A DNA stretch of 64,000 bases from Nemertoderma westbladi (lineage: Eukaryota > Animalia > Xenacoelomorpha), in the NCBI GenBank assembly GCA_032718475.1, contig JAUCBJ010006760.1:59505-123504 (forward strand), given 5' to 3'. Positions within the stretch are counted from its first letter, which is position 1; each line of letters opens with the position of its first letter. Positions 12,158 through 54,855 of this stretch are shown piece after piece. Under the pieces are notes generated by a model that saw only the letters and a program-made list of their open reading frames with translations, was not told the origin of the DNA and did not search any database. A program made the position numbers and the translations under genes.

Positions 12158-13306
12158 TGTTTGCGCTTTTAAGACCTTTGACAGTTTAACCTGCCAAAAT
12201 TAGAATGTCTTTTAGAGGATAGATAGTCTTTAGCCTATGACGAGTATTTGATACACTACATTAGCCGAAGTCAGTCTATGCGCAATCATTCACCCGCTGG
12301 ATATACCCGGGAGACTGAATTCGGAAGCCTAATGATTGATGGTGTAAGCCTACTGTATTATTCGACTGATCGTAATATATAATCTCTGACAAATATTATT
12401 CACTTTCGGGAAATATTAACAGTTCCTTTAGGACGTGGCGCTCTAAATATGTAAACAGAGTTATGACTTAAACTAGACACAACGAAATGGCTATAGATTC
12501 ACGTATATGGCGCATTCTTTAGGAGATGCTTTGTTATCAGTTACAATCATACACAATGCTGCACAATACTGCACACTAATCTGCCGACCTTCACTAAATT
12601 TAGTCACGTATAAAGAGAGCAACATACAATTTATGTTGGGCCTATGAAATAGCATTAGATTCACTCCAAACCACTTAACGTAGGTTGCAATCGTTTATCT
12701 GTAACCGGTCTCTCTAACCTTTAGTATATCAAGAAGATTGGGATGTCTGACTATTGATCAGTATTCCGATATAATATTTCATCAACAAATATAATGAATA
12801 ACCGACAGTAAAAGCAGTAATATTAGTAAGATATGGTAAGTAAGTAAGATATGAATTGCATAGATAACAGATATACGTTCTATAATTAAGCCTACTAATG
12901 TAAGACTAAAGACTGAAACACGGAGGTGCCAAAAGCCGGTGTTCTTAGGCTCTGGGCAAAAACATAACACTGAATTCCTGAGTTTCTGTATCCACCTCCA
13001 ACACAGAGACAAAAAACGCTCTGATTGGTCGACCGAACAACGAGAGAACAAAGAAACAAAGAAATGTCGACGTGGCAATATCAGCTGTTAGCCGTCGTCA
13101 TGGTAGCGACACTGTTTTCAAGAGTATCTAGCTTATTGCGTCACGAAATTGCGGATTATGTCCTCTAAAGTACAAATACAGAAGAAATGGCTTTTATGTC
13201 CTCTAAAACACCAGTACAGCAAGGACACGGCCTTTTTATGCCTGGTAAATCAACTACAGAGTACTTTACGGGAAAATAACCGGCTAATTACGCAAAAGCT
13301 TTTACA
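12158..13306 (-). repeat. 3' LTR of element 1
   Basis: Direct repeat of 28749-29897; about 6 substitutions seen by eye. Confidence 0.97.
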
Positions 13307-13314
13307 CCGCTCCC
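13307..13314 (-). promoter_or_regulatory. Polypurine tract GGGAGCGG
   Basis: Directly precedes the 3' LTR; identical in element 2 (56216-56223). Confidence 0.85.
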
Positions 13315-13384
13315 AGAAAATGGGATTTAAGTCTATAAAATATAACAAATCATAGTTTCTAAAATATAAAAATACTCTAAACAG

Positions 13385-16300
13385 TTAGTCTTTCTTACGC
13401 GGACGGCGTTTACGCAGTTTTTTGAGGCTAGCAAGAGTCCTTTTCTCTTTGGGGCGAGCCACTTTACTAGGAGGGCTATAACTCCTGGGTGAAGGGTGCA
13501 ATACAATTGCATCAGAAGGTTTCGGATTGCGATCGGTGTATCCGCCGGTCGAGGTACCTGGTTGATCGATATCAACTTCCGTGGAGCGAGGTCTAACAGC
13601 CTTTAGGGCGCGCCTCAGGACAGCAGCTCCTACGGGTCCTTGACGGGTCGTCTGGACAATGGCGGTAGGCGGACCGTGAGTGGTGAGAAACTTCCTTGAT
13701 TTAATGGTTCTTTCCAGCTCGCGTTCTCGGGCTCGATATTCGTAGGGCCGTCGAGATACTTCCTGTAACTCAGGGTGCGAGTTGATAAATAAATCGCCAT
13801 ACTCAGGGTCTTGACGGATATAATTGATCAAATGGTATGAAGTAATATCGTTAGGATTGACGTTCCTAAGGTATTTTCGAACGAATTTGGTGGAAATACA
13901 CTCACCAACACGCTTCATTAGTTCGTAACTCGGTGTACGTGTTTTTTGTTCCACAGACGCGAATAAATAAGGATGGAACGCGTAAACTCCCTCGTAAGAG
14001 CGTCCAGGGTAGTATCGATGACGGGACTCACAATGTAAATCCGCGTTCGCTTCCCAAGCTCGGATGTAGCGCAGGGTAATCATTTCATCTACGCTCTCTA
14101 AATCGTGATTAAAGGGGCAATTATAACTGGCATGTCCTTTAAGTTGACAGTGGTGGCATTGAGTCATAAATTGGGGGCAGACTGCAAAAATATGAGAGTT
14201 ATTAAGTCTGCAATACGCACAATATATCTCCATCATTGGTTGTTCGTGGAAATAGGAGCAGGGTACGTCTGAGTCCATAGGAGTGAAATGGTCTCTCGAT
14301 GCGCATAATCGACAACGTTTTCGAGAAACATAGTTAGCGTGTCGATAATCGTATGCGGTGAGACATTGTGGACCTTGATACCACTCTAAGACGTAGCCGT
14401 TATCGCTGCTCCGGGGCGCTGTAGGCTGAATCGCTTCAGCTTCTAAGCATATTGGTTCGTCTTCCAATTGCATAGCTGAGGTAGGTGCGGCCGTCTCCGC
14501 AAGCGGACCCACTGTCTGAACTTCGACGACAGAATAACCCGTGGGTATTCGGGGTCTTTGTATAACAGATGAATGCAAGTTCTGTATACAAACGTCCTGA
14601 AAAAGGGCAAATCCCGCGCTGTTTAGCTTCTCCACCGCTGAGTCTCTCAGGCTGAGTTTGGTCAGAGCGCGGTCCTTGAACTGACTATCAACGTTACGGA
14701 ACGGAGTCAGAAAGCGCCTGAAACATTCAAAGCGGATGAATTTATTGTGTTCATCTAACTTGGCGAGTTTGGTTCCAAGTATTAAGGGATGGGCGCGTAT
14801 GGTACGACTGCACACATCGGCTAGCCAACCGGCAAGTGCTGCGTTTTCAAAGATCGTGTATATAGCTAAGGAGGGACGAAGTGGAACACTCATAAAGCTA
14901 TACACGGCGCCAGGTGCGGTCAACGGTCCATCAAAGTATAAACGAGAATAATGATCTCCGTATACTTGTTGGTAATTTATAGGATTTCCAACCTTGAAAT
15001 TCCATCCGTATTCTTGAAAGGCAAGATGTCCGATGGAGGTTCGTTGTACTTTAGTAATACCGCTGGGTGTATCTAACTGATCCAGATGTTTCTGCAGTTG
15101 TTCGAGTTCGACATGATCGAGAGGATTTATTAGCGGTAGAAACTTCAGACTATGTGTAGGATCTTCCGGTTTTACCATGTAATATTGTTTTAGATTGACG
15201 TAATAAGGGTGATCTTTGATCCCGTAAAACGAGTCCGGTAAAGGTCTAGCGCGTATGTTTACATCGTGTACCATGCGACGGACAAGATCTGCTCTATTGT
15301 CCGGAGGTTCAACGAGTATATCATCGACACGAGCGGATTCGATGGGGGGACGCTGCAACATAGGAGCGTCGGCGATAAGATCTCGAGATCTTAGGTTGAT
15401 AACAACCGGTTGGGGTTGTGCCGTCGCAAAAAGTTTGTCTCCGAAATGGGGAACCATCGAGGGATGAAGAATGGTTTTAGAGTAGAGATCCGTCATAAGG
15501 ATTTGCGCTTCGGGTTGCGCTAAAGCCGCTTCTTCTCTCTCATCCAGTTCTATATGTCTCTCCTCGAGCTGATACTCCTCCGCTTGTTGTTGTAGACGCT
15601 CATCTAGAAACTCTTGTAAAGAGTAGGTTCGTCCACGTTCGATGTCCTCTTCGAGATTTTGTATTTCTCTATCGAACTGGGGTAAAGCTAATTCCTTCAC
15701 CGCTTGGACTTGTTGCTGCAATTTACGCTTCTCCAAACAATCGTACGTTCCCTTTCCGATTTTCTGCCGAATAGCGTCTAATGCGTTTCGTACGACGCTC
15801 TCTTCGACTTCCGTAACGGGTTGGATAGAGGTGAAGCCGGGACGGTTGTATGGGTTAAACGGCGATATTAGATGCCCACGTCCCAAACCAGCTAGGTAGG
15901 GTTGGTGAATGTCTCGTGAGCCTACTACCGGAGTGCCACCGATCAACTGTTCGGGTAACACTAGATCTTTGAACAGTGAGTACAGTTCGGGAGGATCCGT
16001 GATACTATTAGGGTCAAGAGTTTGAGGTCTAACTGAGGAATGCGGAGGTCTGACCGAGTATTCCGGAACTCTGATCATCGGTTTGTTCAAGGATCGCTTG
16101 AGTCGAGCGACCGCAGGGGACACGTCGAAAAGGTTTCGCTCGAAACTCCCATAAGTATATCATGTAAAACTGTGTTTAGCGCAACGTCTCCGCGGATGTT
16201 TATGTCTTTCCGTTTGCTGGTTGGGTCTAGGGCATTCATCGCAGTAATACCAAAGACGCACGTCCTGCAGGGGAAACGCGGGTGATCGTTCTCCAGTTTT

Positions 16301-16909
16301 ACAATATTCCTCCATCTGTTCGAAGCTATCTGGGACAACAGGTAGCGGTCGATCGGCGGTAAGATACATCATAGTGAAATAGAGTCGTTTGAGTTCTATC
16401 ATAGGATCATGATGTATAACTTGAGGATATCGAGTTTCGAGATTTTGTTGACTGGCAATATTGAGGTATGTCTCTCTCAAGAATTCCAGATAATCGTTGA
16501 AGTCGCTGCGTTTATCTGGCTCTTCAACGTCTTCTCTTTCGAGTCTATTTCGAATAGAGTTCTCGTGTTCTATTCGTGGTTTATCGTTCCGACTCCGCTG
16601 GGTATGATATTTAAATAAAACCATTTCCCTTTCGGTATCCACATCGTCCGTATCGTGTAAATCGATAGGATGGCCAGTAGTTAAGAAGTCCATATACGTA
16701 CCATTACGATGCGTATAACGAGCGGTGAACTTTCTATAATCCAATTCACGCGTAAGTTGCTCCGGGGACATTGGCGGTTCGATGTAACGACCATCATCTT
16801 CCGTAGTAGTTGGACCAGCGTCGCCGCGTATCAAACTATCGACAAACGCTTGTAAAGGTAGAGTATATCGCTCCCTGATACCAAGATCATCTTCTATCAA
16901 CTCAGTCAT
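13385..16909 (-). CDS. Accessory ORF of BEL element 1 (~1174 codons, one internal TGA): CCHC zinc-knuckle cluster and basic C-terminal tail
   Basis: The 249-aa ORF (16160-16909) and 912-aa ORF (13385-16123) are in one frame, separated by TGA plus 12 sense codons; motifs CRLCASRDH..C, CAYCRLNNSHIFAVC, CHHCQLKGHASYNC; tail KKLRKRRPRKKD; homologous remnant in element 2. Confidence 0.85.
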
Positions 16910-16952
16910 ATCTGCTATGAGTTTATCAATATTATAATGAGTTTATATATAT

Positions 16953-17108
16953 TAGGCTAGCGGGCGTCGCTGCCTACCCCTCTTTTGCCCCCGGACAGTG
17001 TAAGATCCTCAGCGCCGATGTACCGTCGTCGCTGTGCTTTCGCCAACGATGTAGCCACACAACGACAACGATAACCGGCACAAGTCACTCCACTGTCCGT
17101 CCCAAAGG
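16953..17108 (-). ncRNA. Conserved long RNA hairpin plus small hairpin just upstream of the accessory ORF
   Basis: Sense-strand stems cggacagtg/cactgtccg and tatcgttgtcgttgtgt/gcacagcgacgacggta with G-U pairs; same fold at 54662-54812. Confidence 0.65.
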
Positions 17109-18555
17109 CTTAGATGTACTGCAGGTTTTTCTTGGAGAGTTAGGGTTACTTTCACAATTGCGACTCGCTACTGTAAACACACCTTAGTAGTAACATTCAC
17201 CTACAAACGCACAAATTCAACACAACTGCAACAAACTGCACACATTCGGGCCATTTGTCCGTTAGTCAGTACCTTCCAGAATGTCACTGTATTTATTATG
17301 TATCCTTGGATACTAGCAGTGCGCTATTTATTCCCTATGCTATTCAATGGGGCATGCCTTCTATTGTTCTTTTAACTCACTTCTAATTCTAGCGTGGTTG
17401 TTGCCATGGTGACATTATGGAAAGCTAGCGGTAGAATTAGGGTAATTCTCATGCATACAGATCTGGGATGCTATTTAATAGTAATTCTTTAATGGTCAAT
17501 ATCCCCTTTATACATGATTCTATGAATTTTATCGGCTATTGACTATACATTGGAGATTCTCGCACACAAATACACTTAATAGAGTGAATCTCCGCTCCCA
17601 TGATCTATTAATTAATGGAATTTTGGGAATGTTATAAATTGTCTAAAATGACAATTTATTAAATTCATTAAAATATCTGAATTTAAATTTATTCCCGTAA
17701 ATTTTATTATTTAATGTTAAATAGACACAATTTTATTCCAGAACGTGTCTGGGAACTTGGATCCTTAATTCTAGGAAATTTGTCCTTTTTAAGAGTATCG
17801 GTAAGTGCTACAATATCTTAATCGACTAGAATTTTAAAGGATCTGATATTTGACAGAATTTTGTAAATATTAATAATTAATATTTAGGATGGTCACCAGT
17901 TTATTCCAGAACTTGTCTGGGGACGTTAACCACTGATTCTAGAATTTTGTCTTTCAAGTATATCGGTGGGTGCCGCGATATCTTAATCGACTAGAATTAC
18001 AGATGGTCAAAGGGTTTAACAGATTTATTTGCGTTGTACGCTACTGTTAAAGGGACATCACGCTACTATATGTATTATTTAATATACGGTATGAGAGCAA
18101 TATCGCACGAAGCAATGTCAGTGTGAAGAGGCAAGTCGTTTCCAAGGTCTACCCAGAGCTTGGTTTAGCTGAGACACGAGGATCTGAACTTTGCATTCCT
18201 AATACTCTGCCTACCAATAATACTTGAATATAGTAGTGGCTTTATTGTACTTTAATAAGTACGGACATTTCCTCTTACTGTAGTCACGTATTTATAATAT
18301 AATACGGACAGTAAGGAAGGAGAAAAAGAATTATTTCTCGCCGTCGCACTAAATATATAATATATACATAATTAAATAATAAACGCGAATATATATTGCA
18401 CTAATCTACTAAATAATCTCTAAAATATCATACTACTAAATAAAATTAAATAAAACAATTAAAATAAAATTACATAATAATACATACATAAATATAAAAG
18501 AATAAAACAAATACAAATATAAAGTAATATGGTCACACACCCACTCCAGCCGTCG

Positions 18556-21500
18556 TTAAGTTGGGGAGTCCCTAGATGTTTGTTGGATTAGGGAGGTGGT
18601 CGTGGGAAGAGTATCTTGTCTCCCATAGTTTCCGGAGAGTTCTCTGTCTCTTTCCAGTAAACATAAACGTCCCACTGGGCGATTGAGCTGCTGCGTCTCG
18701 AAGACAATTCCCGGTTTCTTGAAGTTACGTCGCATGACGACGAGTTCTACCGATCGCACCAAACCGTCATCCGAGATGTGAGTCTCGATGATACGACCTG
18801 TCTGCCACCTCTTACGTGGAAGATCTACATCCACAATAAGAACCATGTCTCCAGCGCTGACGTTTTCTTGCTGCGCAAACCACTTAGTTCGAAGTTGTAG
18901 CGTGGGCAGATAATGTTTTTCGAAATGGTCAGCGAAATGACGGGATAACAACTGCATGAGTTGCCAAGTTTGTCGGCAGTATTCGTCTCCGTCTGTGATT
19001 TCCGATTGTGGGAGCATGGCTACAGGTTTCTTCAGTAGGAAGTGCGCGGGTGTTAGCGCTTCCAGGGAATCGGGACTCGATGAGACTGGCATAAGCGGTC
19101 TCTCGTTGAGATAGGCGGCGATTTCTTCCATTAACGTCCGCAAAAGTTCGTCGGTGAGATAAGCGCGGCAAGGCACTATAAAATGAAATGCCGTCTTCAC
19201 ACTTCTTATTAATCTCTCCCAACTTCCTCCCCACCAAGGGGCGTCGGCGGCGTTGAAGGTCCAACTAGACGCTGTTACTCGTAGTTGGTCGTCCACCTGT
19301 CTTTGGTTCCAATCTTTGACGTAAGCTCTGATTTCATTGTTGGCACCAATGAAGTTTGTTCCCTTATCAGATCTCATCGTGTTACTAGTGCCAAAGCGAG
19401 CGATCTGTCGTCGTAAGCTTAATAGAAAGCTGTTGGTAGATAAATCGTTCACCATATCGAGATGGATGGCTCTACAAGTCATACAAACAAAGATTACACA
19501 CCATCTCTTGACTATAGTCCTAGCACGATATACTTCAATAGGGCCAAATAAATCCACACCGGTATTAGTAAAGGGTGGTTCATAAAAGCTTACTCGTTCC
19601 CTAGGTAATTCTGCCTCTCTCTGTGTTAAAGGCCTACTGAATGCTTTCCTACAGGGTATACAGTTCCTAAGAACTTGGTTCAGAGCTCTACGGGGTTTAT
19701 AAAAATAATAGCGAGTTCGAATTTCGCTAAGAACTCGTTCTCTACCAGCATGATAAAGTTTGCTGTGAACATCTACAATCATCTTGACTTGTATTTCAAG
19801 ATTTCTAATGAGTATGGGGAACTTAGTATCAAAGGATAATGGGGCATTCGTTAACCTTCCTCCAACACGTATCAACCCATCTATCATTGTGCTAGAGAAA
19901 CGATCCCTTAAGCGCATCTGTGGATTTCTCAACAACAGGAAATACTTATCGGAATCTTCATAGCATTGTAAGAGTCTCAGCATCTGTTTGTTGGTTTCTT
20001 CATGCTCCTGATAACTGATCTTCTCCTTCAGAAACCTGTCGGGTATCTTATATTTGGGAAGGTCTTTAATAACATGGACCTGCACTGATGTGATTGGAGC
20101 GGTATCACCCTTTGTTTTCATCCCAGAGTAGTGATGGTGAAAACATCTCTTTAAATATGTAACGGCCTTACAAAGCCGATTCCAGGAACTGTAGTGATGC
20201 ATCGCTCTCTGCAGAAGAGGTGAGAGTCCTTGCGAGACGTCTGGTATGCCAGATTTCCAATCCTTATCACGGATTTCCACAATGGGTTTATTTGTGGCTG
20301 TGGGTTTCTGATCCAAAGCGTCGTCTCCGGAAGTATGTAGTACAGACAGATCTACTGTGGGTTTGAATAACTTCGATTTACTCGCCTGAGTTTTAGGCTT
20401 GACTTTCTCCGCTCCCTTGGCCTGTCTAATTTCTGCTGTAGTAAGATGAGGAGGCCATTCTTCTTCTTCTTTGTAGAGGAAGTCGGGTCCACCTAACCAG
20501 TCTGGAGTATCTACCAGTTCTTGTGGAGTTGCTCCCCTGGAAGCGATGTCCGCTGGATTAATCGTTCCGGGGCAATGTCTCCATTGATCCATCGTCGTGC
20601 GACTGAGTATAATAGCTACTCTGTTGGTAACGAAGACGCTGAACTGACAGACTTCATTGGTTATATACTCCAACACGAGTAAAGCGTCGGTCCAATAGAC
20701 AGTTTTCTCCAGGGGATAGTCGATCTGTTCTGTTACATTCCGGCCGATGGCTGTAGCGTATAGAGCCGCTTTTAACTCCGCTCGAGGAACTTTCAACTTG
20801 TTGTTTATCAATGCCTTAGAGGTAACCAAGGCGACTTTGATTCCGTCCGGAGTTTCCACCCTTAGGTAGGCTACTATACCTATTCCCATATCGCTGGCGT
20901 CTCCAAACACATGGAGTTGATATGAATACGTAGGGAGAACATGACCAAAATATGAACGGGAAATTATAAAGTTTTCGATGGCTGGTAGAGAATCTTCCCA
21001 TTTCATCCACTTCTTTAATAATTCTCCCTTAAGTGGATCGTCCCATGAGTGGTTTTCAAGCCACATTTGTTGTACTAAACTCCGAGCAATCAATATAACT
21101 GGGCTAATAAATCCCAATGGATCGAAATAAGTGCTCAGGATACTTAAACAAATCCGTTTAGTCCGAACTGGATTATCTCGCTGTTTTAATTGGAAAAACA
21201 GGATATCTCTTTCTGTGTCCCATTTCAAACCAAGGGTCTTAGTTTCTGGGAGATCATCCTTTATTAGATCTAGGTCTTTTGCTCCTCGATCTTCTACCGG
21301 GATCGACTCCAGAAACTCACGGGAGTTGCTAGTGAATTTAGTTAATCGAAATCCACCTTTCTTTAAGCATTCTACCGTTCCTTTAGCGACCTCAATGGCT
21401 TCTTCGACTGATGGAAGGGACTTCAGATTATCGTCCATGTAGATGTCTCGTTTGATATTGTCGATCACCTCTTTAGAGAAGGCGTCTCGGTTGTCATCCG

Positions 21501-24500
21501 CAGTGGTGCGCACCACGGAACAGGCGTTTGAAGGGCTCGAGATTATCCCAAAGGCTTGGATGGTCATCCAGTACTCCACAGGTTTCTTATTGAGGTCTCC
21601 TTCAGGCCACCACAAAAATCGTAGGCTATCTCGATCCCTATCCAGCGCTTTGACTTGTAAGAACATGCCTTCTATATCTGAGGCGAAAGCAATGGAGTAT
21701 TGTCTTAATCTTAATAGTATTCCCAACAAGGATTGGAGTAAGTTGGGTCCGGGTAACAATTCAGAATTAAGAGATTGGCCCATATAAAGGGCGGAACCGT
21801 CAAACACCACTCGTACTTCATGGGGTTTACCGGGTTTGGGAACGTAATGGTGAGTTAAATAATACGTTCTCTCAGTTATAGGTGTTTCTTCCGGTACTAG
21901 CTCCGCATATCCCTTGCTAATAAACTTCTTCAACTGCGTTTGATACATTTCTTTAGCTGAAGAATTTGCCGTAAGACGTCGATGTAGTTGAGCAATTCTT
22001 TTCTCTGCCAAAGGTCTGTTGTTAATGAACTTTGGTTCTCGCTTTCGGAAAGGAAGACCGATCTCATATCTACCTTGATCTTTAAGAAAACGAGTAGTTG
22101 TCGCTTGGATCTGCTTGGCTCTTTCTTCCTCCACCGATAGGGCCTTATCGTAGGAGTTGGGCTCTACAACCTCTTGAGTAAAGAATCTTACGGCGTGTTC
22201 ATCCCGAGTCTTGGCATTATAACGTTCAATGACGTCATTAAGCTCGTCGTTATAGTCGTCTCGCTCGGATGGGAGAAGGAGTTGACATAAGTTCACTTGA
22301 TTTTGCCAAGTCTCGCTTTCCTTAAGGAGATCGATGGCATTCTCCTCCTCGAAAAGTTGATGTATATCGTCGTTGTCTGAGGAGTATGGAGTTCCCTCAG
22401 TTGGATCGTCGAACTCACTGTTCTCAACTTCCCATTCTCGCACTTGATATACCTGATCTTTCGGTAATCTTTCCATGAGAGTTCTACGGGAAGGGCCAGT
22501 AAAGTACCAACCTACTCTAGTTCTTACCGCATAGGTTTGTAGTGGCTGCGGTTGAGCAGGCCGTTTCTCCAATGTCTCGAGCGCCTCATGCGCGTTTTGG
22601 CCGATGAGTATTTGCACTCCAGGATAATCAGTCTGGAATCGAGGTATCTTAAGATGTTGGATGCTCTCATCCTCGTCCCAATTATAAAGGTCTGCTTGAG
22701 TAGTAGCGAAGTTCTTTATAGCCACCATTTTCACTGACCTTATGCTATGTTCTCCTAGTTCGTCCTGGGGGGTGGACAACGCACCTACATAATAATCCGC
22801 TGTTACTGTAGATTTCCAAACCTGCATAATTCCTGACATGTTTAGCTTAGTTCGGAACTTGGGTTGTCCAGCGAATATGTCTTCGGCTAGCTCTTTGTCG
22901 ATGAATGTTCCTGTACTACCGGAGTCAAGGAGGGCGTTCACTACATAACTCCTTTTTGGTCCGTGGACCCTTACCTGTACCACAGGAAATTCTCTAATCC
23001 CTACATTGGAAGTTGGCGCTTTCCAAAATGGTTGTTGATCAGAAGTAGTTAGGGTAAGGTCGCTGTCCGTATCCTTTTCATACGTGAGTGCTCGATACAC
23101 TGTGGTATTTATCGTGTAACAGGATTCGTTTTCGTCGGAGAACTCGTCCTTATAGAATCCTTCCATCTCAGATTGATCAGTGTCGTTCACATCACTGAAT
23201 TGGACATGTAATTCGGAATCACTTACCTGACTCGGACTATTTCGCTCGAATTCAGTGTGCAACAAGATATGATGTTTCGCACCGCACTTGGCACATCTTG
23301 TGTCAGAGTAACAGGTTCGCCGTTGGTGTCCTTGTCTGAGGCAATTATAACACAACCGCTTATCCCACATGACTTCACGTCTCTCAGTTAATGATTTCTT
23401 TAGGAATTCATCACACATATTCAAGCGATGGGTCCCATCACATAGCGCACATTTCGGTTTGATGTTACTTACCTTATTTTGCGTAACATTGTGCACACTT
23501 GTTTTTTCTTCGGGCTTTCTCATCTGAATTCTCTTGGGAGACGTAGGAGGAGTTTTTCTTACCTGTTCTCTCCTGTCATTGGTTCGAGACTTGAATTTAC
23601 TTACCTGATCTTTAGGCATTTTATTGACATAATAAGATCTGTCAGTGTCTTTCCCGCTATCTTCTCCTTGAGAAGTCTGGCTTTCGCCGTCGTCTGTATA
23701 ACACACTGGTGTTACCTTTCTCCTAGAGACGGGTTTTTCACTTACCTTGTTTTCCGGTGTCTTCTCTCTGGACAGTTTTAGGAGCTGTAATTTCACTTCT
23801 CCATCAAGGAATGACATGAGATCAGCCATGGTAGGGTCTCGTCGTTGTTGTTCCATCATATATAACACTTTCTTATCCCAACGTGTACCTACTCCACCCT
23901 TCGGTAAAGTAGAAGCCACTGCTCTAATAACCATAGCATTCTGATACTCATGAGACTTACCTAGCCAATCTAATTGTCTGCAGATCTCCTGAATCTCATC
24001 GGAAAACTCTATAATTCCGCTGCTAATAAACTTTTGGGGCACTACCAATTTTGCATACAAATACCCAGCTATGTTATTCCTATTACCATACCTGATGTTT
24101 AGTGTATCCCAAACTTGTCTTAATCCGTCTGGATGTCCAATAAACTTTAACGCCATTAACTTGGGAGATCCTTCCAAGCACTCGATGAGGAATCTAAGTT
24201 TCTCTCCATTAGATAGCACAGAGTTCTGTATGTTATCTTTGTAATATTCATTAAAAGGTAACCATTTCATCTCATCTCCATTGAACTTGACGATCTCTCC
24301 CACCTTTACCGCTTGCCGGGCTTCGGTTCTAGCCATTTGACGCGTAAAACTTTCTTGGGCCATCGTGTTATTTAATATCGAGTTATCGGTATATAAATTT
24401 CTCGGATTATGATCCGGTCTATAGGGAATATCATTATCAACAGGTCTATAATTACCCTTAATAGGGTTCACTATAGGAGTTTCTACTTCGCTAGCAGTAT

Positions 24501-26661
24501 AGATGCGTGTAGGCTCCACACCTTGCGCATGAGATACTTCAGACCTAACAGGTTGACACATTGTTACAGGGGGTGGTGGTATACCCTTTTGTGTATTTAC
24601 TAATTTATCGCGTTCTAGCGCGATACTTTGCTGCACTTCTTGCAACTCTAACCTACTTTCCCTTACTGTGCCCTTGAATTGCTGAACGGTCTCCTGCATC
24701 TGTCCGAGCAGGAGATCCATCCCCTGTCGTCTCTCATCCACCCATTCGACCGCCGAAGCGGGATTCGCCAACGTTGTAGCGGGCGGACGAGGGACAATGG
24801 GCGACAAATCATGAATATTTCGCTCGGAGTCCAGGGCATGAACTGTCTCATGGGCTGTTCTGCTGGGCATAGGTAGCTTGGTACTGTGCAAAGGGAATTT
24901 AGAGGTAGGTTCAGGGAGTACAGGTGTCTCTACCACCGAAAGGGTGGCTTCGGGAACAGGCCTAATTATTTCAGGCTCATCTACTATAGTAGGGAGTCTT
25001 TCTATTGTAATTATTTGGTCTGTGGGTTCTGTACTACCCAAGTTGGTGTTATTTAGTTGCCTTCTAACAGCTGGAGGCAAATCAGGCAATTTCTGACGGT
25101 GGGATGTTCTTTTACGTCTGCTTAGGTGAGATCTATTTCCTTTGCCTTCAGTATCGGTGGTATCGCCTTCCTCAGATGATGTATATCCCTGTCTTTTGGG
25201 AGTAGATCGATTCATCATCTGCATATTACTAGCTGTTAACTGTTTATTTATGCAGTCTTGATTCTCCTGAATATTTTCCAATTCTAATTGGGCGATCTCT
25301 TCAGCCGCTATCCGCTCTGCTTCTGCCGCTGCCATTGCCGCTTTTCTTTCCATTTCGGCTGCTTTTCTTTTCGCTTCTGCCTCTGCCGCTGCCGCTGCCA
25401 CTGCCGCTTTTCTTTCCATTTCGGCTGCTTTACTTTCCTCTTCGGCTGCTTTCCTTTCCGCTTCCGCAGCTGCTACTGCTGCTTTCTTTCTGTCTTCTAT
25501 ACGTTTTTTCTTCACCTGTTCTTCTTGGACTCTAGCAATGCGGAGTTGTTCATCGAATTTAGCTTGGTTCGCCGCTAACCTATCCACATCGATGGCGTCC
25601 AGCACATGCTGTGCTCCTTCACTATTAGGGTTAAGTCCATCCAACCTTCTCCTCAACTCTTCATCACCTAAGAAACATTGATAGTCTGACAGATAGATAT
25701 CAATGGCATCCCTCTTATGCGGGTTCTCTGCCGTCGCTTCACTTTCCACTTGGGAAAAAGTAGCGTCTGTTGATTCTCCATGGGTTGAGCGCTCCTCCAG
25801 CTGAGCTTTCCACTGAGCCGTTCCTTGAACTTGGAGACTCACCCGTTGAAACCAAGTCTTTACGGCAACTTGCAATGACATGTCTTGTCTTCTTTTAGAA
25901 GCCTCCTCAAAGGCCGATAAGATTAGCCTAATTCGCAGAATTCTTTCTCTAACTTGATAAAGCAGTTGTCCCTGCTCTTGAGGTCCTTGAGGTTGTTGAA
26001 ACAGTTGTTCTTTTACTTGCTCCATAGAGCTGAAGAATCCCTGTGCGTATCCGGCTGCGGACCTCTTCCACACAGCTGGATCGATGGTTTCTTTGGCTAC
26101 TCCCATCCGGTGTATGTCTTCCCAGGCAGCTTCTGATAAATCAAACGGGAGTCCGGGTCCGGGGAAGTTCCATTGCGACTCGACAATAGACTTCAGTTCT
26201 TCCTTTGTGTATCCCGCATAACTATCTTTAGTCGATCGCTTACTTCTCGCCCAATCGATCTGGTGTTCTTCCACCACAATCAATAACCTAGTGAGTACGG
26301 CTGCAGGAAGGATGAGAAGGGGATCCGAATAAACCGCATCCGTCATCTTTGCTCCGCGCTCGGGTGTCAGCTCTACAGTACCCTCACTACTGGAGCTGTC
26401 GGGCCGCTGAGAAATAAGTTCTTGGCTCGCGGGTTGTTGCTGTTCCGCTGCTTCTTGGTCCCGCTTGACCTGAGCTCGAGTGCCTATGATAGACCTACGA
26501 TGTTGGACCAGCCTAGGTTCTGTTATTACTACTGGAGGGATGACCTTCCTCACAGTGGGAGGTGAACTGAACTTAGGTGTAGACGGTTCTACACCCTTAT
26601 CTGAGTCGCAGATAGTTACATCTAATAAACTGTCTGACAGGTTCTGCTTAGTATCAGACAT
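18556..26661 (-). CDS. BEL/Pao Gag-Pol polyprotein, 2701 aa
   Basis: BEL triple knuckle CALCDGTHRLNMC/CYNCLRQGHQRRTC/CAKCGAKHHILLH; protease LLDSGS; RT YMDD; RNase H FGDAS; integrase H..H..CIPC, GVDLFGP, SDKGTNF, WERLI; PR-RT-RH-IN order in one ORF. Confidence 0.97.
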   Translation of the reverse strand: MSDTKQNLSDSLLDVTICDSDKGVEPSTPKFSSPPTVRKVIPPVVITEPRLVQHRRSIIGTRAQVKRDQEAAEQQQPASQELISQRPDSSSSEGTVELTPERGAKMTDAVYSDPLLILPAAVLTRLLIVVEEHQIDWARSKRSTKDSYAGYTKEELKSIVESQWNFPGPGLPFDLSEAAWEDIHRMGVAKETIDPAVWKRSAAGYAQGFFSSMEQVKEQLFQQPQGPQEQGQLLYQVRERILRIRLILSAFEEASKRRQDMSLQVAVKTWFQRVSLQVQGTAQWKAQLEERSTHGESTDATFSQVESEATAENPHKRDAIDIYLSDYQCFLGDEELRRRLDGLNPNSEGAQHVLDAIDVDRLAANQAKFDEQLRIARVQEEQVKKKRIEDRKKAAVAAAEAERKAAEEESKAAEMERKAAVAAAAAEAEAKRKAAEMERKAAMAAAEAERIAAEEIAQLELENIQENQDCINKQLTASNMQMMNRSTPKRQGYTSSEEGDTTDTEGKGNRSHLSRRKRTSHRQKLPDLPPAVRRQLNNTNLGSTEPTDQIITIERLPTIVDEPEIIRPVPEATLSVVETPVLPEPTSKFPLHSTKLPMPSRTAHETVHALDSERNIHDLSPIVPRPPATTLANPASAVEWVDERRQGMDLLLGQMQETVQQFKGTVRESRLELQEVQQSIALERDKLVNTQKGIPPPPVTMCQPVRSEVSHAQGVEPTRIYTASEVETPIVNPIKGNYRPVDNDIPYRPDHNPRNLYTDNSILNNTMAQESFTRQMARTEARQAVKVGEIVKFNGDEMKWLPFNEYYKDNIQNSVLSNGEKLRFLIECLEGSPKLMALKFIGHPDGLRQVWDTLNIRYGNRNNIAGYLYAKLVVPQKFISSGIIEFSDEIQEICRQLDWLGKSHEYQNAMVIRAVASTLPKGGVGTRWDKKVLYMMEQQRRDPTMADLMSFLDGEVKLQLLKLSREKTPENKVSEKPVSRRKVTPVCYTDDGESQTSQGEDSGKDTDRSYYVNKMPKDQVSKFKSRTNDRREQVRKTPPTSPKRIQMRKPEEKTSVHNVTQNKVSNIKPKCALCDGTHRLNMCDEFLKKSLTERREVMWDKRLCYNCLRQGHQRRTCYSDTRCAKCGAKHHILLHTEFERNSPSQVSDSELHVQFSDVNDTDQSEMEGFYKDEFSDENESCYTINTTVYRALTYEKDTDSDLTLTTSDQQPFWKAPTSNVGIREFPVVQVRVHGPKRSYVVNALLDSGSTGTFIDKELAEDIFAGQPKFRTKLNMSGIMQVWKSTVTADYYVGALSTPQDELGEHSIRSVKMVAIKNFATTQADLYNWDEDESIQHLKIPRFQTDYPGVQILIGQNAHEALETLEKRPAQPQPLQTYAVRTRVGWYFTGPSRRTLMERLPKDQVYQVREWEVENSEFDDPTEGTPYSSDNDDIHQLFEEENAIDLLKESETWQNQVNLCQLLLPSERDDYNDELNDVIERYNAKTRDEHAVRFFTQEVVEPNSYDKALSVEEERAKQIQATTTRFLKDQGRYEIGLPFRKREPKFINNRPLAEKRIAQLHRRLTANSSAKEMYQTQLKKFISKGYAELVPEETPITERTYYLTHHYVPKPGKPHEVRVVFDGSALYMGQSLNSELLPGPNLLQSLLGILLRLRQYSIAFASDIEGMFLQVKALDRDRDSLRFLWWPEGDLNKKPVEYWMTIQAFGIISSPSNACSVVRTTADDNRDAFSKEVIDNIKRDIYMDDNLKSLPSVEEAIEVAKGTVECLKKGGFRLTKFTSNSREFLESIPVEDRGAKDLDLIKDDLPETKTLGLKWDTERDILFFQLKQRDNPVRTKRICLSILSTYFDPLGFISPVILIARSLVQQMWLENHSWDDPLKGELLKKWMKWEDSLPAIENFIISRSYFGHVLPTYSYQLHVFGDASDMGIGIVAYLRVETPDGIKVALVTSKALINNKLKVPRAELKAALYATAIGRNVTEQIDYPLEKTVYWTDALLVLEYITNEVCQFSVFVTNRVAIILSRTTMDQWRHCPGTINPADIASRGATPQELVDTPDWLGGPDFLYKEEEEWPPHLTTAEIRQAKGAEKVKPKTQASKSKLFKPTVDLSVLHTSGDDALDQKPTATNKPIVEIRDKDWKSGIPDVSQGLSPLLQRAMHHYSSWNRLCKAVTYLKRCFHHHYSGMKTKGDTAPITSVQVHVIKDLPKYKIPDRFLKEKISYQEHEETNKQMLRLLQCYEDSDKYFLLLRNPQMRLRDRFSSTMIDGLIRVGGRLTNAPLSFDTKFPILIRNLEIQVKMIVDVHSKLYHAGRERVLSEIRTRYYFYKPRRALNQVLRNCIPCRKAFSRPLTQREAELPRERVSFYEPPFTNTGVDLFGPIEVYRARTIVKRWCVIFVCMTCRAIHLDMVNDLSTNSFLLSLRRQIARFGTSNTMRSDKGTNFIGANNEIRAYVKDWNQRQVDDQLRVTASSWTFNAADAPWWGGSWERLIRSVKTAFHFIVPCRAYLTDELLRTLMEEIAAYLNERPLMPVSSSPDSLEALTPAHFLLKKPVAMLPQSEITDGDEYCRQTWQLMQLLSRHFADHFEKHYLPTLQLRTKWFAQQENVSAGDMVLIVDVDLPRKRWQTGRIIETHISDDGLVRSVELVVMRRNFKKPGIVFETQQLNRPVGRLCLLERDRELSGNYGRQDTLPTTTSLIQQTSRDSPT

Positions 26662-27885
26662 GTTTGTTTACACAGTTGAATGCCTACTGCTATCTTACAG
26701 TCTAAGCAAGTCTAGTAATTCAGTATTAACTGCTAGCCTAGTAATCAATTACCGATACTGCTACTTAGTGTAGCGTGATATATATATAATATTAGAATAC
26801 CGGTATGCTTATAGTATATATAAGTATTATTAGTAACTAGAATTAATTACAGAATACCGGTATAATTTCAGCCTAAATTTTATAGAAATAAAGATAATAG
26901 GCCTATCGTAAATACCGGTATATCAATTATTTAAATAATTAAATTTCTGAATTTTAAGGGTTACTTGGTTACCTTAACTTACTTTATTACCGTTATTTAA
27001 GCAGTAGTCCAACTGATATTGAGACCTAATTGTTGTATGGCAGGCCTACTATTTATAAATCGTTTGAGTTGATTTATAATATATATATACCCGTTTAATG
27101 GGTTTTGTCAATGTTTGAAATAAATGTTATTATTTCTGGGGGAGTCACCACACATAAGCTGTGCGCTCTTAGTGGAGTGCTACTGGTTAGACACTAAAAC
27201 AAATAATTCTAATTTAACTAAGTTACTTAATACTACAAATTACGTACAATTCGGGTTGAGATTACAATCTCTAAATAAACACAAAAATTACAAATACACA
27301 AATACGAATTTTTTAGGGTAATTTTACAAGAAGTCTACTAACCAGCCTAACAAAGGGTTAGAATATCTGGTTATTACAACGGACAGGTTACTACGGTATT
27401 TGAAAATAATAAGTAGTAGTAAATATACTGCGCTGTCCAGATAGGAAAAATACCACCGTCTGACGACCTATAGCCGTATCGCTATAGGTACTACGTTATG
27501 TATCACGGAGTGTTCCTACCTAGAGATTAATTACCGCGGTCTACCAGAACCAACGTGCCTATTAACCACTTTACAACACAAATATACTGCCTACACGCTA
27601 ATTACCTTCGGAAAGCACTGTACACTAAACCCTAAATTAGGTACAAGTACTTGTACAACAAATAATCAGTAGTTAAAAATACTTGAACAGTTAAAAGAAC
27701 CACGGTATCTGCCGGAGTGACCAAAGCATAAAATCTCCAGTCTTTACCTACGCCGAGCAGCCCTGATGTAGTACCGGGGTTAGTTTAACTATAACGGTAT
27801 ATATAACAAACACAATTACTGTAGGAATAAACTTGGGGATATGAATGTTGCGAATAATAGCATAAACTCTGAATAATAAATATTA

Positions 27886-28450
27886 CGCTACGCGTACAGA
27901 CTACTCAAACAAAATGCAGACCAAATACTGACAGACTACTCTCAAGCCTAAACAAACTATGGTATATGCAGACTCCGAAATGATTAGTTAGTATGCGTTC
28001 TAACCTAGTAGTACGACTTATTCTTTCACAGGGGGTTTACCTCACAGCACTTGAAGCCCCTACTTTCCTAACTAGCACTTTATCGGACAGATGCTCTACA
28101 CACACCGAAATTTCCTCAAACCCAACAACAGCCAGACAACTATCCAGCCTACAAATTATCTAAATAAAATTATACGCTACCCGTACAGACTTCACAAACA
28201 AAGTACAGACCAAACGATGTCAGACTACTATCAAGCCTAAATACACTACAGTATATGCAGACTCCGAAATGATTAGTTAGTATGCGTTCTAACCCAGTAG
28301 TACGACTTATTCTTTCACAGGGGGTTTACCTCACAGCACTTGAAGCCCCTACTTTCCTAACTAGCACTTTATCGGACAGATGCTCCACACACACTGCAAT
28401 CCGTTCAGACTTAACAACGGTTAGACAACAGTCCAGCCTACAAATTACCT
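27886..28450 (-). repeat. Tandem duplication (~290-bp unit) in the 5' leader of element 1
   Basis: Block tatatgcagactccgaaatgattagttag...cggacagatgctc occurs twice (~27963 and ~28252). Confidence 0.85.
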
Positions 28451-28737
28451 GTACAATCTGAGCAGGCTTACACGCCTTCTGCTCAATACTGGCCTACAAA
28501 TAAATAAAACTTGACAGAAACAAGTAAAATCTCAATAAAAAACCAGGGCGGCCGTCCCTGATTAATTATTAAGGCCTACTGGTATATAATTATCAAAATC
28601 GAATAATACTGCTGTACCTGTACTGTAAGTACCGGTTCGGGCAGTTGGGCCGACAGGCCTACAGCAGTACCTACAGGTTACCGTTCGACCGGTACCGGTA
28701 CTTTAGACTTGATTGCTTACACCGCAATCCAGAAGCA

Positions 28738-28748
28738 ATATCTGTTAT
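28738..28748 (-). promoter_or_regulatory. Non-tRNA primer-binding site ATAACAGATAT, complementary to own LTR
   Basis: Abuts the 5' LTR; no TGG; exact complement of LTR segment 29455-29465. Confidence 0.8.
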
Positions 28749-29897
28749 TGTTTGCGCTTTTAAGACCTTTGACAGTTTAACCTGCCAAAATTAGAATGTC
28801 TTTTAGAGGATAGATAGTCTTTAGCCTATGACGAGTATTTGATACACTACATTAGCCGAAGTCAGTCTATGCGCAATCATTCACCCGCTGGATATACCCG
28901 GGAGACTGAATTCGGAAGCCTAATGATTGATGGTGTAAGCCTACTGTATTATTCGACTGATCGTAATATATAATCTCTGACAAATATTATTCACTTTCGG
29001 GAAATATTAACAGTTCATTTAGGACGTGGCGCTCTAAATATGTAAACAGAGTTATGACTTAAACTAGACACAACGAAATGGCTATAGATTCACGTATATG
29101 GCGCATTCTTTAGGAGATGCTTTGTTATCAGTTACAATCATACACAATGCTGCACAATACTGCACACTAATCTGCCGACCTTCACTAAATTTAGTCACGT
29201 ATAAAGAGAGCAACATACAATTTATGTCGGGCCTATGAAATAGCATTAGATTCACTCCAAACCACTTAACATAGGTCGCAATCGTTTATCTGTAACCGGT
29301 CTCTCTAACCTTTAGTATATCAAGAAGATTGGGATGTCTGACTATTGATCAGTATTCCGATATAATATTTCATCAACAAATATAATGAATAACCGACAGT
29401 AAAAGCAGTAATATTAGTAAGATATGGTTAGTAAGTAAGATATGAATTGCATAGATAACAGATATACGTTCTATAATTAAGCCTACTAATGTAAGACTAA
29501 AGACTGAAACACGGAGGTGCCAAAAGCCGGTGTTCTTAGGCTCTGGGCAAAAACATAACACTGAATTCCTGAGTTTCTGTATCCACCTCCAACACAGAGA
29601 CAAAAAACGCTCTGATTGGTCGACCGAACAACGAGAGAACAAAGAAACAAAGAAATGTCGACGTGGCAATATCAGCTGTTAGCCGTCGTCATGGTAGCGA
29701 CACTGTTTTCAAGAGTATCTAGCTTATTGCGTCACGAAATTTCGGATTATGTCCTCTAAAGTACAAATACAGAAGAAATGGCTTTTATGTCCTCTAAAAC
29801 ACCAGTACAGCAAGGACACGGCCTTTTTATGCCTGGTAAATCAACTACAGAGTACTTTACGGGAAAATAACCGGCTAATTACGCAAAAGCTTTTACA
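28749..29897 (-). repeat. 5' LTR of element 1
   Basis: Direct repeat of 12158-13306, TG...CA ends. Confidence 0.97.
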
Positions 29898-30472
29898 GCA
29901 TATACAGATAGGCATATACCACACCAGTCTGCCAGTACGGTATCTGTTACATACTCATCCATCTGTCCATTAACATATTAACAACATATCATACTGTCGT
30001 ATACATTCTGACATTTCATTGACTAATGTCTGAATGTTTATAAATCATCACAACTCAACAAGGGAAAGCAAGCAGTAAGCCATTTTGAAGTAATTTACAA
30101 TGACAGAGTAACTGACAGGGCTGCACAATAATAATTGTTGCCAAAAATGGCAACCATTATTTTTCTTTAATTCTAATGGTTGCCAAAAATGGCAATAATT
30201 ATTTTAGGCACATTTCGGCCTATTGCTAAGAGAAATTCAGATGATGATTTTTTTTCTTATACGGTCAATTATATTTAAATTTCGCGCTCTTTTCACTTAC
30301 CTATTTACCAAAATGCGATTTTGCTTCTGGGCGTGCGAAAATTAGAAAAACCAAAAGTTGCCAGATTTGGCAATAAACATTGCCATATGTAGCAACTTTT
30401 GAGGTTGCCAGATTTGGCCATTGTACCTAACTGTAATGATAAACGACGTATATAGGCATAGTTATGGGTAGC

Positions 30473-33856: not shown

Positions 33857-34731
33857 TGAAATGATACCCCTAGGCGAGGAGCTAGGCCTGCCTACAGATC
33901 AAACGTGGTCTCAGTCTGAAGTCTAGGGCAGTAGGGTAAACCGGCAGACTGGGGTCGTACTGTCGTATGGCCATGCAGCCATGTGCAATGTGGGTTGTAC
34001 TGCAGTACTGTTGTATGGCATGGCCACCCTTGACTCTTGACATAACAGCATAAAGCTGTAAAGTACTTTAACTTTACTTTACAGCTTTATTTTAATGTCT
34101 GTCAGTTTTTATTACTTCTAAATGAAGCCGAATAATTTTCCAATAAAATGACTGAATGACATATAAACCAGGCCATATCCAGATATCTTCAACTGATTCC
34201 ATTATTTTACAGTGACATTATACAGTTCTGCAGTTCTGCCTGTCTGCAGTTATAGTAAAGTTTCAGTTCATAAAAAAGTGGAACTTTTAGGTTTTGTGAA
34301 TTTTGAGTAGGCCTAACACCAAACACACACTACAGCACTAACCTAACAGGTGCCTTCAGGAACAAGTTAATGCTTGCACTGCACATATTGTAATGATGTT
34401 GAATAGGGCCTAGCCTAGTCTGATCACTGATGGTACAGTAGGGTAAAATAGCTCGATCGGGCTACACCTAATATCTAGCAAAGTATCCCGATCGGGCTAT
34501 ATGTGTAGCCTGATCAGGCTATTATCACATTTTCCAATTTGCGAGCTAAACTAAATAAAAGCGCAACAATTGGCGCCATCATCTGATCATGGCGGTATGC
34601 TTTCGAATACAGTCATATGAATTTGCTTTTCCTATTAGCTATTACCTGATTACAGTAGTAAATACTGAAATAATTAAGCCTATCCAGCTATCTCTGTATC
34701 TAACGAACTTTATCAGTTTATCCTATTTACT

Positions 34732-36066
34732 ATGATGCACTTTATAGTACCATCGACATCGCAGGTCACTGACCTTTCTTCTCCCAGATCTCATTCCGTG
34801 GCAGTCTACAATATATATCTTAATCAGACTCACCATTGTTCCCTACGCTACAGTCACTTGCTTGAACTGCATCAAGAACTACTAAACGCATTTGGTACTC
34901 CCGCCCAATTCAACTTCCCCTCTAAAAAACTACTTCCCCTCTCGCCGCTTCAGTTAGAAAAACGCCGAGGAGAATTGGAGAAATATTTGCAAATATTGAG
35001 TCAGTCGCCATTCGCCAATTGCGACCTAGTTAAATCGTTTTTATTGCTCGCTCAACGGCGAACTTTTGGTTTTATTCCAGAACCAGCGAAACTCAATATT
35101 TTATTGTTAAACAACCACGAGCTATCTGTGAGTATCAGTAACTGTGACTCGACCGACGTTATTGTTACCAGTGTAACCCGCCATCTCGGTTTACCTTCGA
35201 GGTTATCCAACTATTTCGGGTTGTTTTTGGCTCGCTCTACCAGCCATAGCGATATCGGCGTGATAGAACGCCAACTCTGGGATTATGAATCGCCTTACAT
35301 AACCCTAAGCCAAAGAAGCAGTGCTGAAAACCATTTAAAGGTTGTTCTCCGTAAGAAAGTCTGGAGCGCAGAATACGACGATGCTTTAATCACTGACCCA
35401 GTCGGATTAAATCTCGTTTACATGCAGGCCTGTTGTGAGTTTAACGAAGGGTTTATTAAATGCGGTAGGGAGACTTACAGACTTCTTATCGAATACCAAA
35501 AACGGAACGCCAAAAAGGATTTCCTGAGGATGTGTCGGCCGTTGAAGGGTTATAATCACGTTCATTTTAAACCCTGTGGTGTTAGTTACCCGGATGGTTC
35601 GAGTAGCAAACAGATCGCGATTTCCGCCGGTGATTACTCGCTGTATTTTCGAACGGATTCCTCGGAAACCATCTATAAAGTAACTCGAATGAAGTGTTGG
35701 ACACTCAGTTCGTCTGTCGACGAGTCGGACTGCACTCCGCGCGTAGAGTTAGCGGTGCAGTACTTACAGGCTAAGGACTCCCTGGTGTGGATGACTCTAG
35801 ACAGCGAGCAATCCTTCTTTATTGCGTCCTGTCTGGAAGGGATGGTAGAGGAATTACTAAACCACGTTGGAGGTAAACCAGTCCTTCCTCCTCCTCCTTC
35901 AGAAGCCCCAACTAATCGCCACTTGTTTAAACTCCTCAACGCTCACCAACCGCCGGCACTCGGAGTTAAACCGAATGGCGATAAACTCGCCACTTCCTAT
36001 CGGAAAGATAACGACGTCATAGAGAACGGATTGTTCGAGACAGGGATAGGTGATGAAGATCTCTAG
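34732..36066 (+). CDS. SNX17: Sorting nexin 17 (PX plus FERM-like domain), intronless
   Basis: PX motifs YNIYLN..HCSLRYSHL, FPSKKL, LEKRRGELEKYLQ; FERM-like DYESPYITL, YKVTRMKCW; diagnostic C-terminus GIGDEDL. Confidence 0.92.
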   Translation: MMHFIVPSTSQVTDLSSPRSHSVAVYNIYLNQTHHCSLRYSHLLELHQELLNAFGTPAQFNFPSKKLLPLSPLQLEKRRGELEKYLQILSQSPFANCDLVKSFLLLAQRRTFGFIPEPAKLNILLLNNHELSVSISNCDSTDVIVTSVTRHLGLPSRLSNYFGLFLARSTSHSDIGVIERQLWDYESPYITLSQRSSAENHLKVVLRKKVWSAEYDDALITDPVGLNLVYMQACCEFNEGFIKCGRETYRLLIEYQKRNAKKDFLRMCRPLKGYNHVHFKPCGVSYPDGSSSKQIAISAGDYSLYFRTDSSETIYKVTRMKCWTLSSSVDESDCTPRVELAVQYLQAKDSLVWMTLDSEQSFFIASCLEGMVEELLNHVGGKPVLPPPPSEAPTNRHLFKLLNAHQPPALGVKPNGDKLATSYRKDNDVIENGLFETGIGDEDL

Positions 36067-45593: not shown

Positions 45594-46827
45594 TGTAAAA
45601 GCTTCTGTGGGATATAACTGGCCCCTTTTGCTTCGCAATCCAGTTTCCCCCCAGGCGCTGGAATACTCTAAAAAGGTTTTCTAACTGTAGATATATTCCC
45701 CTCGCCCGCAAGGTACCTTTACAGGTGTTTTAACGGACATAAAAATCATTCTGCTATATACGTGTTTTGGCGGACATGGTAAGGCAAAAAACTTGTAATG
45801 CACCAACTACCTTTCACAGCTTAGCCGTGATGATTCATATTACGACATCTAACAGCTGGTTGCTGACATGGAAACAGCCATTGGATGTATGGTTCTTTGT
45901 TTGGCTTGAGCCAATCAGAGCGATTTTTCCTGTCGACGTGTAGCTTTTAGTCGATCATAAGGAGAGTGTTCAGTCTTACTGCTTTTACTTGATACTTTGT
46001 TGTTATTGCTGTCTAAGCCAGAAACACCGGCTTTTTGGGAAGAACTCTAGTAAAACTGCTTAGATTATAGAAAGTATAACTGTTACCGGCGGTGTTACCT
46101 CACTTAATTTAACTGCACTAATCATATTGTTTGTACTGCTATTTACCGTCAGTTATTAATTGTATCTATTTGTTGATGGAAATATTGCTCTTTGGAGAAT
46201 ACGGATAAATCACCCAAAATTCCCAATTTTCTTGATACACTACAGGTTAGAGAGGCGGGCTATATATAACAATTGCGATTTATATCAATGTGGTGTGTAT
46301 TGAATCTAATGTTATTTAGTAGACACTACCTGAGTCAATTGCTGTTCTCTTTATGTGTGATCAAATATACTGACGGTCGGCAGAATAGTGTGCATGATTG
46401 TGAGTGTGATGTGACTGGTAACAAAGCATTTCCTAAAGAATGCGACTTATACTTTAATCATAAGCCTTATCGTTGCGTTTAGTATAAGTCCTAGCTCTGT
46501 TTAAATAGATAGAGCGCCACGTCCTAAAGGAACTGTTAATATTTCCCGAAAGTTAATAATATCTGTCAGAAATTACATATTAGCGATCAATCGAATAATA
46601 CAGTAGGCTTACACTGCAACCTTACACTGCAATAATAAAATCTAAGCATCCGAATTCAGCCTCCCGGGTGTAGATCCATCGGGTGAATGATCGCGCATGG
46701 GCTGGCTTCGGCTAATGTTTTGTTTATTAGCATAAAATATTGTCGTATGCTAAAGGTGTGTTAATTAACTAAAAGACATATAAATTTTGGCAGGTTAAAC
46801 TGCTAAAGGTCTTCAAAAGCGCGAACA
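45594..46827 (+). repeat. 5' LTR of element 2
   Basis: Direct repeat of 56224-57456; only a 1-nt indel noticed. Confidence 0.97.
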
Positions 46828-46838
46828 GTAACAGTTAT
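46828..46838 (+). promoter_or_regulatory. Non-tRNA primer-binding site GTAACAGTTAT, complementary to own LTR
   Basis: Abuts the 5' LTR; exact complement of ATAACTGTTAC at 46076-46086. Confidence 0.8.
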
Positions 46839-54812: not shown

Positions 54813-54855
54813 AAATATTAACTCATATTGATATTAATAAACTCAGATAACAGAT

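Follow-up and report, generated by a model that had tools for sequence, protein, structure and literature searches.

Retrotransposons of the BEL/Pao superfamily are described as tRNA-primed, as the original prediction for this locus stated: the ICTV profile of the Belpaoviridae gives an 18-nt primer binding site (PBS) for tRNA-Arg or tRNA-Gly in genomes of 4.2–10 kb (PMC8742986), and the excerpted description of the BEL/Pao element Achilles reports a tRNA-Tyr site (PMC4580426). For the self-primed element Tf1 of S. pombe, excerpts of the relevant papers place the RNase H cut between bases 11 and 12 (PMC7175516) and state a need for two further duplexes, in which PBS-adjacent sequence pairs with parts of the LTR that lie 3' of the primer (PMC10085805). 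Self-priming has been proposed for Tj1 and the Tf1/sushi group (excerpt of PMC4600332). The available portion of another study gives a rule for putative self-primers (at least 10 bp, starting 0–5 bp after the LTR) and predicts self-priming for the Gypsy Tcn1 clade and for the Copia TAR lineage, including Houba and Osr-1 (PMC6317226), so the predicted range of the mode extends beyond the Gypsy-type elements to which the original prediction confined it. Fungal GalEa Copia and bivalve TRIM elements likewise have no canonical tRNA site; the excerpt describing them proposes a local inner-domain hairpin, not a complement in the LTR (PMC6934838).

For BEL/Pao itself, the words primer, PBS and tRNA are absent from one survey (PMC3118150), PBS and tRNA from the paper on Sinbad (PMC554778), and self-priming of BEL/Pao elements was not found in the portions covered of PMC8220671, PMC3601003, PMC6934838, PMC3286476 and PMC4580426. 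A literature search by title and abstract opening, with most subscription journals, Repbase Reports, the original Tf1 papers and genome-paper supplements outside its scope, returned no report of BEL/Pao self-priming. Repbase notes reportedly call some animal LTR families self-primed.

We analyzed a 64-kb stretch of Nemertoderma westbladi DNA (hereafter, the window) that contains two related LTR retrotransposons, element 1 (E1) and element 2 (E2), whose features are collected in Table 1. The LTRs of both are bounded by TG...CA, the two share a polypurine tract (PPT) region, and each is flanked by a 5-bp target site duplication (TSD); we read them as two young insertions. The E1 polyprotein encodes DUF1759 (residues 795–922), protease, reverse transcriptase (RT), a Peptidase_A17/RNase H region (Peptidase_A17 at 1836–1994), integrase (with Integrase_H2C2) and DUF5641, in the motif order protease-RT-RNase H-integrase, with catalytic-type motifs that include acidic motifs of the RNase H type. 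E2 retains gag and protease and has lost RT, RNase H and integrase. By its protein domains E1 is assigned to BEL/Pao (Belpaoviridae) despite the absent tRNA site, and for the same reason it is not a Ty3/gypsy element of the chromovirus type, to which the Tf1/sushi lineage belongs. It resembles described BEL/Pao elements in Gag-PR-RT-RH-IN order, Peptidase_A17, DUF1759, DUF5641, TG...CA LTRs, PPT and 5-bp TSD, and differs in its length of 17.7 kb, in having no tRNA site and in carrying an extra frame without a known family.

Among the 120 of 1120 matches to the RT-RNase H region that were listed, identity does not exceed 44% and the named hosts are cnidarians and echinoderms; the best matches (37–44% identity) have the same BEL/Pao domains. 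E1 forms a long branch (1.69) of unsure placement in a quick tree of 81 rows with no named reference clades such as Sinbad, Suzu, Dan or Sailor. The extra frame after pol has no Pfam family, with a best Atlas score of only 0.79, and parts of it are also kept in E2. The leaders of both elements contain a tandem duplication of 287–289 nt whose copies are 86–88% alike (27878–28450; 47266–47839). Elsewhere in the window are an open 1217-codon frame of a non-LTR retrotransposon with PHD finger, endonuclease and RT (6950–10603, plus strand), a sorting nexin 17-like gene in a single uninterrupted frame with 30–43% identity to its 10 matches (34678–36066, plus strand), and arrays of 22–24-nt units at 1740–2300, 3565–3940 and 59700–60660, the first two of which are also inverted repeats of their own.

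Table 1. Coordinates of E1 and E2 and of their predicted priming features, with the relatives that have a predicted intron in the LTR.
Feature	Position	Strand	Details
E1, full-length BEL/Pao LTR retrotransposon	12158-29897	minus	TSD TATGC
E1 5' LTR, 1149 bp	28749-29897	minus	6 differences from 3' LTR
E1 3' LTR	12158-13306	minus	
E1 gag-pol frame, 2703 codons between stops	18556-26667	minus	domain and motif searches
E1 extra sense frame 3' of pol, 260 and 924 codons split by one stop	13385-16942	minus	Cys/His clusters
E1 conserved TTATAGAA motif, TATA-like	29469-29476	minus	about 10 nt upstream of primer
E1 predicted self-primer, LTR 433-443	29455-29465	minus	
E1 PBS, first base directly after LTR CA	28738-28748	minus	exact complement of 29455-29465
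E1 helix X	28871-28876	minus	predicted pairing with LTR end 28752-28757; 17/100 shuffles as stable
E1 helix Y	28925-28940	minus	predicted pairing with leader 28715-28729 just 3' of PBS; 29/100 shuffles as stable
E1 helix Z	28946-28956	minus	exact 11-nt complement of leader 28599-28609; E2 letters identical
Predicted U5 hairpin before LTR end	28767-28790	minus	folds in both elements
E2, internally deleted relative of E1	45594-57456	plus	TSD ACCTC
E2 5' LTR, 1234 bp	45594-46827	plus	
E2 3' LTR, 1233 bp	56224-57456	plus	one indel relative to 5' LTR
E2 predicted self-primer, LTR 483-493	46076-46086	plus	
E2 PBS	46828-46838	plus	exact complement of 46076-46086
E2 helix X	46691-46696	plus	predicted pairing with LTR end 46819-46824, with a compensatory change against E1; 20/100 shuffles as stable
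E2 helix Y	46606-46636	plus	predicted pairing with leader 46844-46878; -37.0 kcal/mol; 0/100 shuffles as stable
E2 helix Z	46591-46601	plus	complement of leader 47115-47125; read from sequence
Relatives with predicted 66-185-nt LTR intron, junction complementary to primer site: L002, L004, L005, L014, L015, L026, L032			
Further relatives of the same kind: L036, L041, L042, L046, L053, L070, L073			

Re-reading the sequence bore out the four 11-mers of the original prediction, in position and in letters, and alignment agreed with its geometry: the complement is 11 nt long in both elements, not 12, begins at the first base after the LTR CA, and involves LTR segments that align to each other, with the 3' end of the primer opposite that first base. 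As had also been noticed, no TGG-starting site is present: TGG is absent from the first 8 nt past either LTR, and neither element has the 18-nt tRNA 3'-end PBS of the ICTV description. Each instead has what the published rule for self-primers describes, an LTR complement of at least 10 nt lying 0–5 nt past the 5' LTR, with no tRNA site. The two PBSs differ at positions 1 and 8, and both differences are compensated in the LTR partner (A-U to G-C and A-U to U-A), as originally seen. Around the primer the two elements share 76% identity, against 39% in the sequence immediately before this block and 53% in that immediately after it. The within-family covariation evidence comes from these two elements only, and when independent drift of 24% was simulated, 136 of 200,000 runs ended with the E1 11-mer identical to the E2 partner. 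The primer-PBS duplexes have predicted energies of -10.5 and -11.7 kcal/mol. No tRNA gene was found within the window, and the E1 LTR with its leader has no Rfam match. On this evidence, E1 and E2 likely prime minus-strand DNA with an 11-nt piece of their own LTR transcript, as Tf1 does.

E2 carries a second exact copy of its PBS at 46912–46922 and a 9-nt partial copy near 46975–46983. These lie in a leader stretch (46822–46990, plus strand) whose repeated unit comprises the LTR end, the primer site and the helix-Y partner; copies 2 and 3 of the unit are each preceded by a partial reverse complement, giving local hairpins.

Other exact inverted repeats occur in the LTR and the following 200 nt, a second one of 11 nt in E1 and ones of 13 and 14 nt in E2, and we assign these to predicted helices that flank the primer duplex. 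Helices X and Y of the two elements sit at homologous LTR sites. In helix X, the pair 28875:28753 is A-U in E1 and G-C in E2, a third compensated pair; in helix Y the letters differ between the elements, and a duplicated LTR motif in E2 is matched by a longer complement in its leader. The order of nesting is Z, Y, PBS, X, and the primer duplex would therefore cross Y and Z as a pseudoknot. The arrangement resembles the three-duplex 'pretzel' of Tf1, a likeness that is suggestive only: three of the four flanking duplexes tested (E1 helices X and Y, E2 helix X) do not exceed shuffled sequences in stability, and helix Y of E2 beats 100 of 100. In eight relatives tested for such duplexes a single duplex reached 3/100, and none was consistent across relatives.

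Folding gives a similarly mixed picture. In a modelled RNA that begins with the 11-mer and extends 45 nt beyond the LTR, enforcing the primer duplex costs 0 or 0.5 kcal/mol. With a short leader, nested folding of E2 assigns the duplex a probability of 0.96–0.97 for starts at the primer or 10 nt before it; with 40 nt of leader, E1 reaches only 0.19–0.31; and with 150 nt the probability is 0.0 in both elements, in a program that cannot model a pseudoknot. Competition against the primer duplex is nonetheless real, and the E2 leader adds to it with its copies of the primer site and a local partner.

The original prediction held that this lineage had acquired self-priming independently. We scanned metagenomes for relatives and retained 80 of 430 confirmed loci, at 37–44% identity. 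Direct repeats were present in 31 of the 80, and 27 were usable after four (L037, L068, L071, L072) had been dropped for contig-overlap, unresolved or tandem repeats; the other 49 of the 80 had no usable direct repeat. The direct repeat sets the LTR end in 18 of the usable relatives and the LTR start only in nine. Fourteen of the 27 have a complement to the primer site across a predicted LTR intron (Table 1), three have a contiguous complement, two are borderline, one has a TGG site and seven give no signal.

The intron form is clearest where the LTR end is defined. There, 8 of 18 loci, in six families on the tree, have a 10–15-nt complement across the predicted intron (null 0–2/200), and all eight best hits use a GTAAG donor, though the search required only GT and AG; their acceptors are mostly pyrimidine-rich. 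When all ACA positions were tried in the loci with an LTR start only, with consensus splice sites required, six of nine gave 10–15 nt across a GTRAG...YAG intron (null 0–1/40), one of these six repeating the L002 family. The contiguous complements are 11 nt in L058 (shuffles 0/200), 10 nt in L034 (4/200) and 12 nt in L027 (0/300); the last, whose position is uncertain, has offset 2 when counted from the end of the repeat but is some 9 nt away from the likely CA, and it is lost once the LTR end is reset. The borderline loci, L075 and L076 (9 nt, 5/40), fit the intron form only with a donor picked afterwards. L069, with a short LTR of 194 bp, is the only one of the 18 end-defined relatives with TGG within 8 nt (L069:56–70) and is probably tRNA-primed. 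No complement was found in five of the 18 end-defined loci, four of which have no CA at the repeat end, or in L010 and L079 among the others (best match in L079, 6 nt).

As the original prediction had proposed, covariation was examined across related families: in an 11 x 11 cross test each primer site pairs best with its own LTR, with a single tie between sister families. No fixed host primer can account for sites that are specific to a family and track that family's LTR. On the quick tree the spliced and the contiguous forms are intermixed, with 4 and 3 changes. Self-priming stands as the best explanation and is supported further by the relatives, whose differing sites match their own LTRs best, and what falls is its private acquisition by the E1/E2 lineage: the signature recurs, mostly in splice-built form, at about 40% RT-RNase H identity, and is best read as a trait of a wide BEL/Pao group. 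A splice-built primer for E1 and E2 themselves was tried and rejected; the best candidates reach 10 nt with poor donors, shuffles match them in 28/200 and 39/200 cases, and the sense LTR of E1 has no GTRAG donor. No relatives were found among viral contigs, and the exact LTR pattern matched no metagenome contig.

Sequencing runs provide a view of other copies. The element is partly present in six of seven listed runs. On the LTR, over positions 28560–29960, there are 9259 contigs in run X1 and 2192 in run X3, where depth is not copy number; thousands of LTR contigs suggest a very large, diverse family. Summed contig depth, a blunt measure, is 292,551 (X1) and 127,041 (X3) in the E1 LTR bin containing the primer, and falls to 12,530 and 7,160 in the next bin on the 3' side. 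In three of the runs, contigs derived from other copies return to E1 at 29453–29454 after a variable stretch (four joints among those listed), and two X3 contigs match the LTR end and PBS as far as 28737 and then diverge. This pattern is weakly consistent with conserved blocks that end at the primer 3' end and at the PBS end. In the E1 LTR mapping, with 40 of 247 difference rows listed, no further variants were seen at either 11-mer, and a narrow mapping over the PBS stretch listed no substitutions, probably because every difference fell close to a contig end. At position 28875, within helix X, the E2-type letter is the majority in four of four runs (its partner, 28753, lies outside the listed rows). 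In one run guessed to be RNA, no GT..AG joint was seen on the E1 LTR and no contig lay on the PBS stretch, results that have no bearing on expression.

Where the RNA starts bears on which copy of the LTR would supply the primer: a start upstream of the 11-mer is compatible with priming from the 5' end, and a downstream start needs the 3' LTR copy as primer. No TATA box is present 30 nt upstream of the primer in E1, E2 or 10 relatives examined, in agreement with the original prediction for the two elements; in another relative, L073, the sequence TATATAA precedes the primer by 31 nt. The sequence TATAGAA is conserved at LTR position 423 in E1 and 473 in E2, only 10 nt upstream of the 11-mer, and as a TATA box it could direct initiation to a point some 20 nt downstream from where the 11-mer begins. 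The elements would then still be self-primed, only not from the 5' end, drawing the primer from the 3' LTR copy or from a second packaged RNA. A pyrimidine-A motif about 32–36 nt downstream of TATAGAA, which by general motif rules we take to be initiator-like, fits such a start. We nevertheless regard this alternative as unlikely. Cutting the 3' LTR copy would remove, on that molecule, the R repeat needed for strand transfer, and a CCAAT box and a TCAGT-type motif some 95–165 nt upstream of the 11-mer could give an RNA start upstream of it. In the relatives, moreover, the priming copy would have to lose the intron while the copy serving as U3 template retains it, for which a 5'-proximal primer is the simplest explanation.

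Slightly less probable still is that the pairing has a structural role, in packaging, in strand transfer or as a translational switch, with a host RNA such as a tRNA fragment as the real primer. The region around the primer is rich in long-range helices, and the E1/E2 changes spare PBS positions 2–7, with position 1 able to pair with U in both variants. By general tRNA rules, tRNA-Asn(GUU) would presumably have a six-base anticodon loop to which positions 2–7 are complementary. Half-tRNA priming also occurs in Copia lineages (excerpt of PMC6317226). Against these points, pairing with such a host RNA would comprise 6 base pairs that must outcompete 11, the primer sites of the 11 loci tested differ while each follows its own LTR, and a complement that exists only at a splice junction and ends within 0–5 nt of the LTR end is difficult to account for unless it serves in priming. 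That the complementarity arose by chance in a single ancestor and was inherited is very improbable and already largely refuted: despite the two elements only and the other 9–14-nt inverted repeats in the same region, matches in dinucleotide-shuffled LTRs are rare (7/3000 for E1 and 0/3000 for E2 at offset 0; 12/3000 and 22/3000, or 0.4–0.7%, at offsets 0–5), both compensations arise by drift at 0.07%, and the complementarity recurs in unrelated families.

Under self-priming from the 5' end, the RNA would start at or upstream of the 11-mer, which would anneal to the PBS adjoining the LTR end. The RNA would be cut behind base 11, a step that falls to RNase H in Tf1 and probably does so here, and the 3' OH exposed in this way would let RT copy U5 and then R up to the cut, with strand transfer to follow; R would begin after the cut. 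The nested helices Z, Y and X are predicted to hold the PBS exposed between U5 and leader, and the primer duplex would close the pseudoknot. A primer that stayed attached and templated the plus-strand PBS would enforce covariation in each cycle. Most relatives would have to splice an intron out of the LTR to form the primer; E1 and E2 carry the predicted primer in one piece.

E1 and E2 share with the Tf1 group (Tf1/Tf2 of S. pombe, Tj1, Tosmo, Tcry1, Tf1/sushi) an 11-nt LTR complement adjoining the LTR CA, the absence of a tRNA site and candidate flanking duplexes, as far as excerpts of the sources go (PMC7175516, PMC4600332, PMC10085805). They differ in that Tf1 is a Ty3/gypsy element, that about 700 nt separate primer and PBS in E1 and E2, and that the primer of their relatives spans a predicted intron; further, the RNA start and RNase H cut demonstrated for Tf1 are predictions in E1 and E2. 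For the Copia TAR lineage and Gypsy Tcn1, self-priming is predicted from the same kind of sequence evidence; these are plant elements of other superfamilies, and the excerpt describing them notes no splice-built primer (PMC6317226). The predicted nested flanking helices and the candidate splice-built form in BEL/Pao relatives are new in the present analysis. An origin of self-priming independent from Tf1 is plausible. We give an even chance to the fuller proposal of a large animal BEL/Pao group without tRNA priming, most of whose members build the primer at an LTR exon-exon junction through the host spliceosome, with E1 and E2 as an intron-free form whose Tf1-like pseudoknot evolved separately.

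If the fuller proposal is true, splicing would work as a reverse-transcription switch, and the 3' LTR copy, left unspliced, would be spared from cutting; splice-built primers would tie the onset of reverse transcription to host splicing, a connection that would be new. If BEL/Pao elements are self-primed, the Tf1 mechanism extends to a third LTR superfamily, and the missing PBS in many aquatic BEL/Pao elements would be explained. A self-primed group would escape silencing by tRNA fragments, and its existence in BEL/Pao would bear on which came first, self-priming or tRNA priming.
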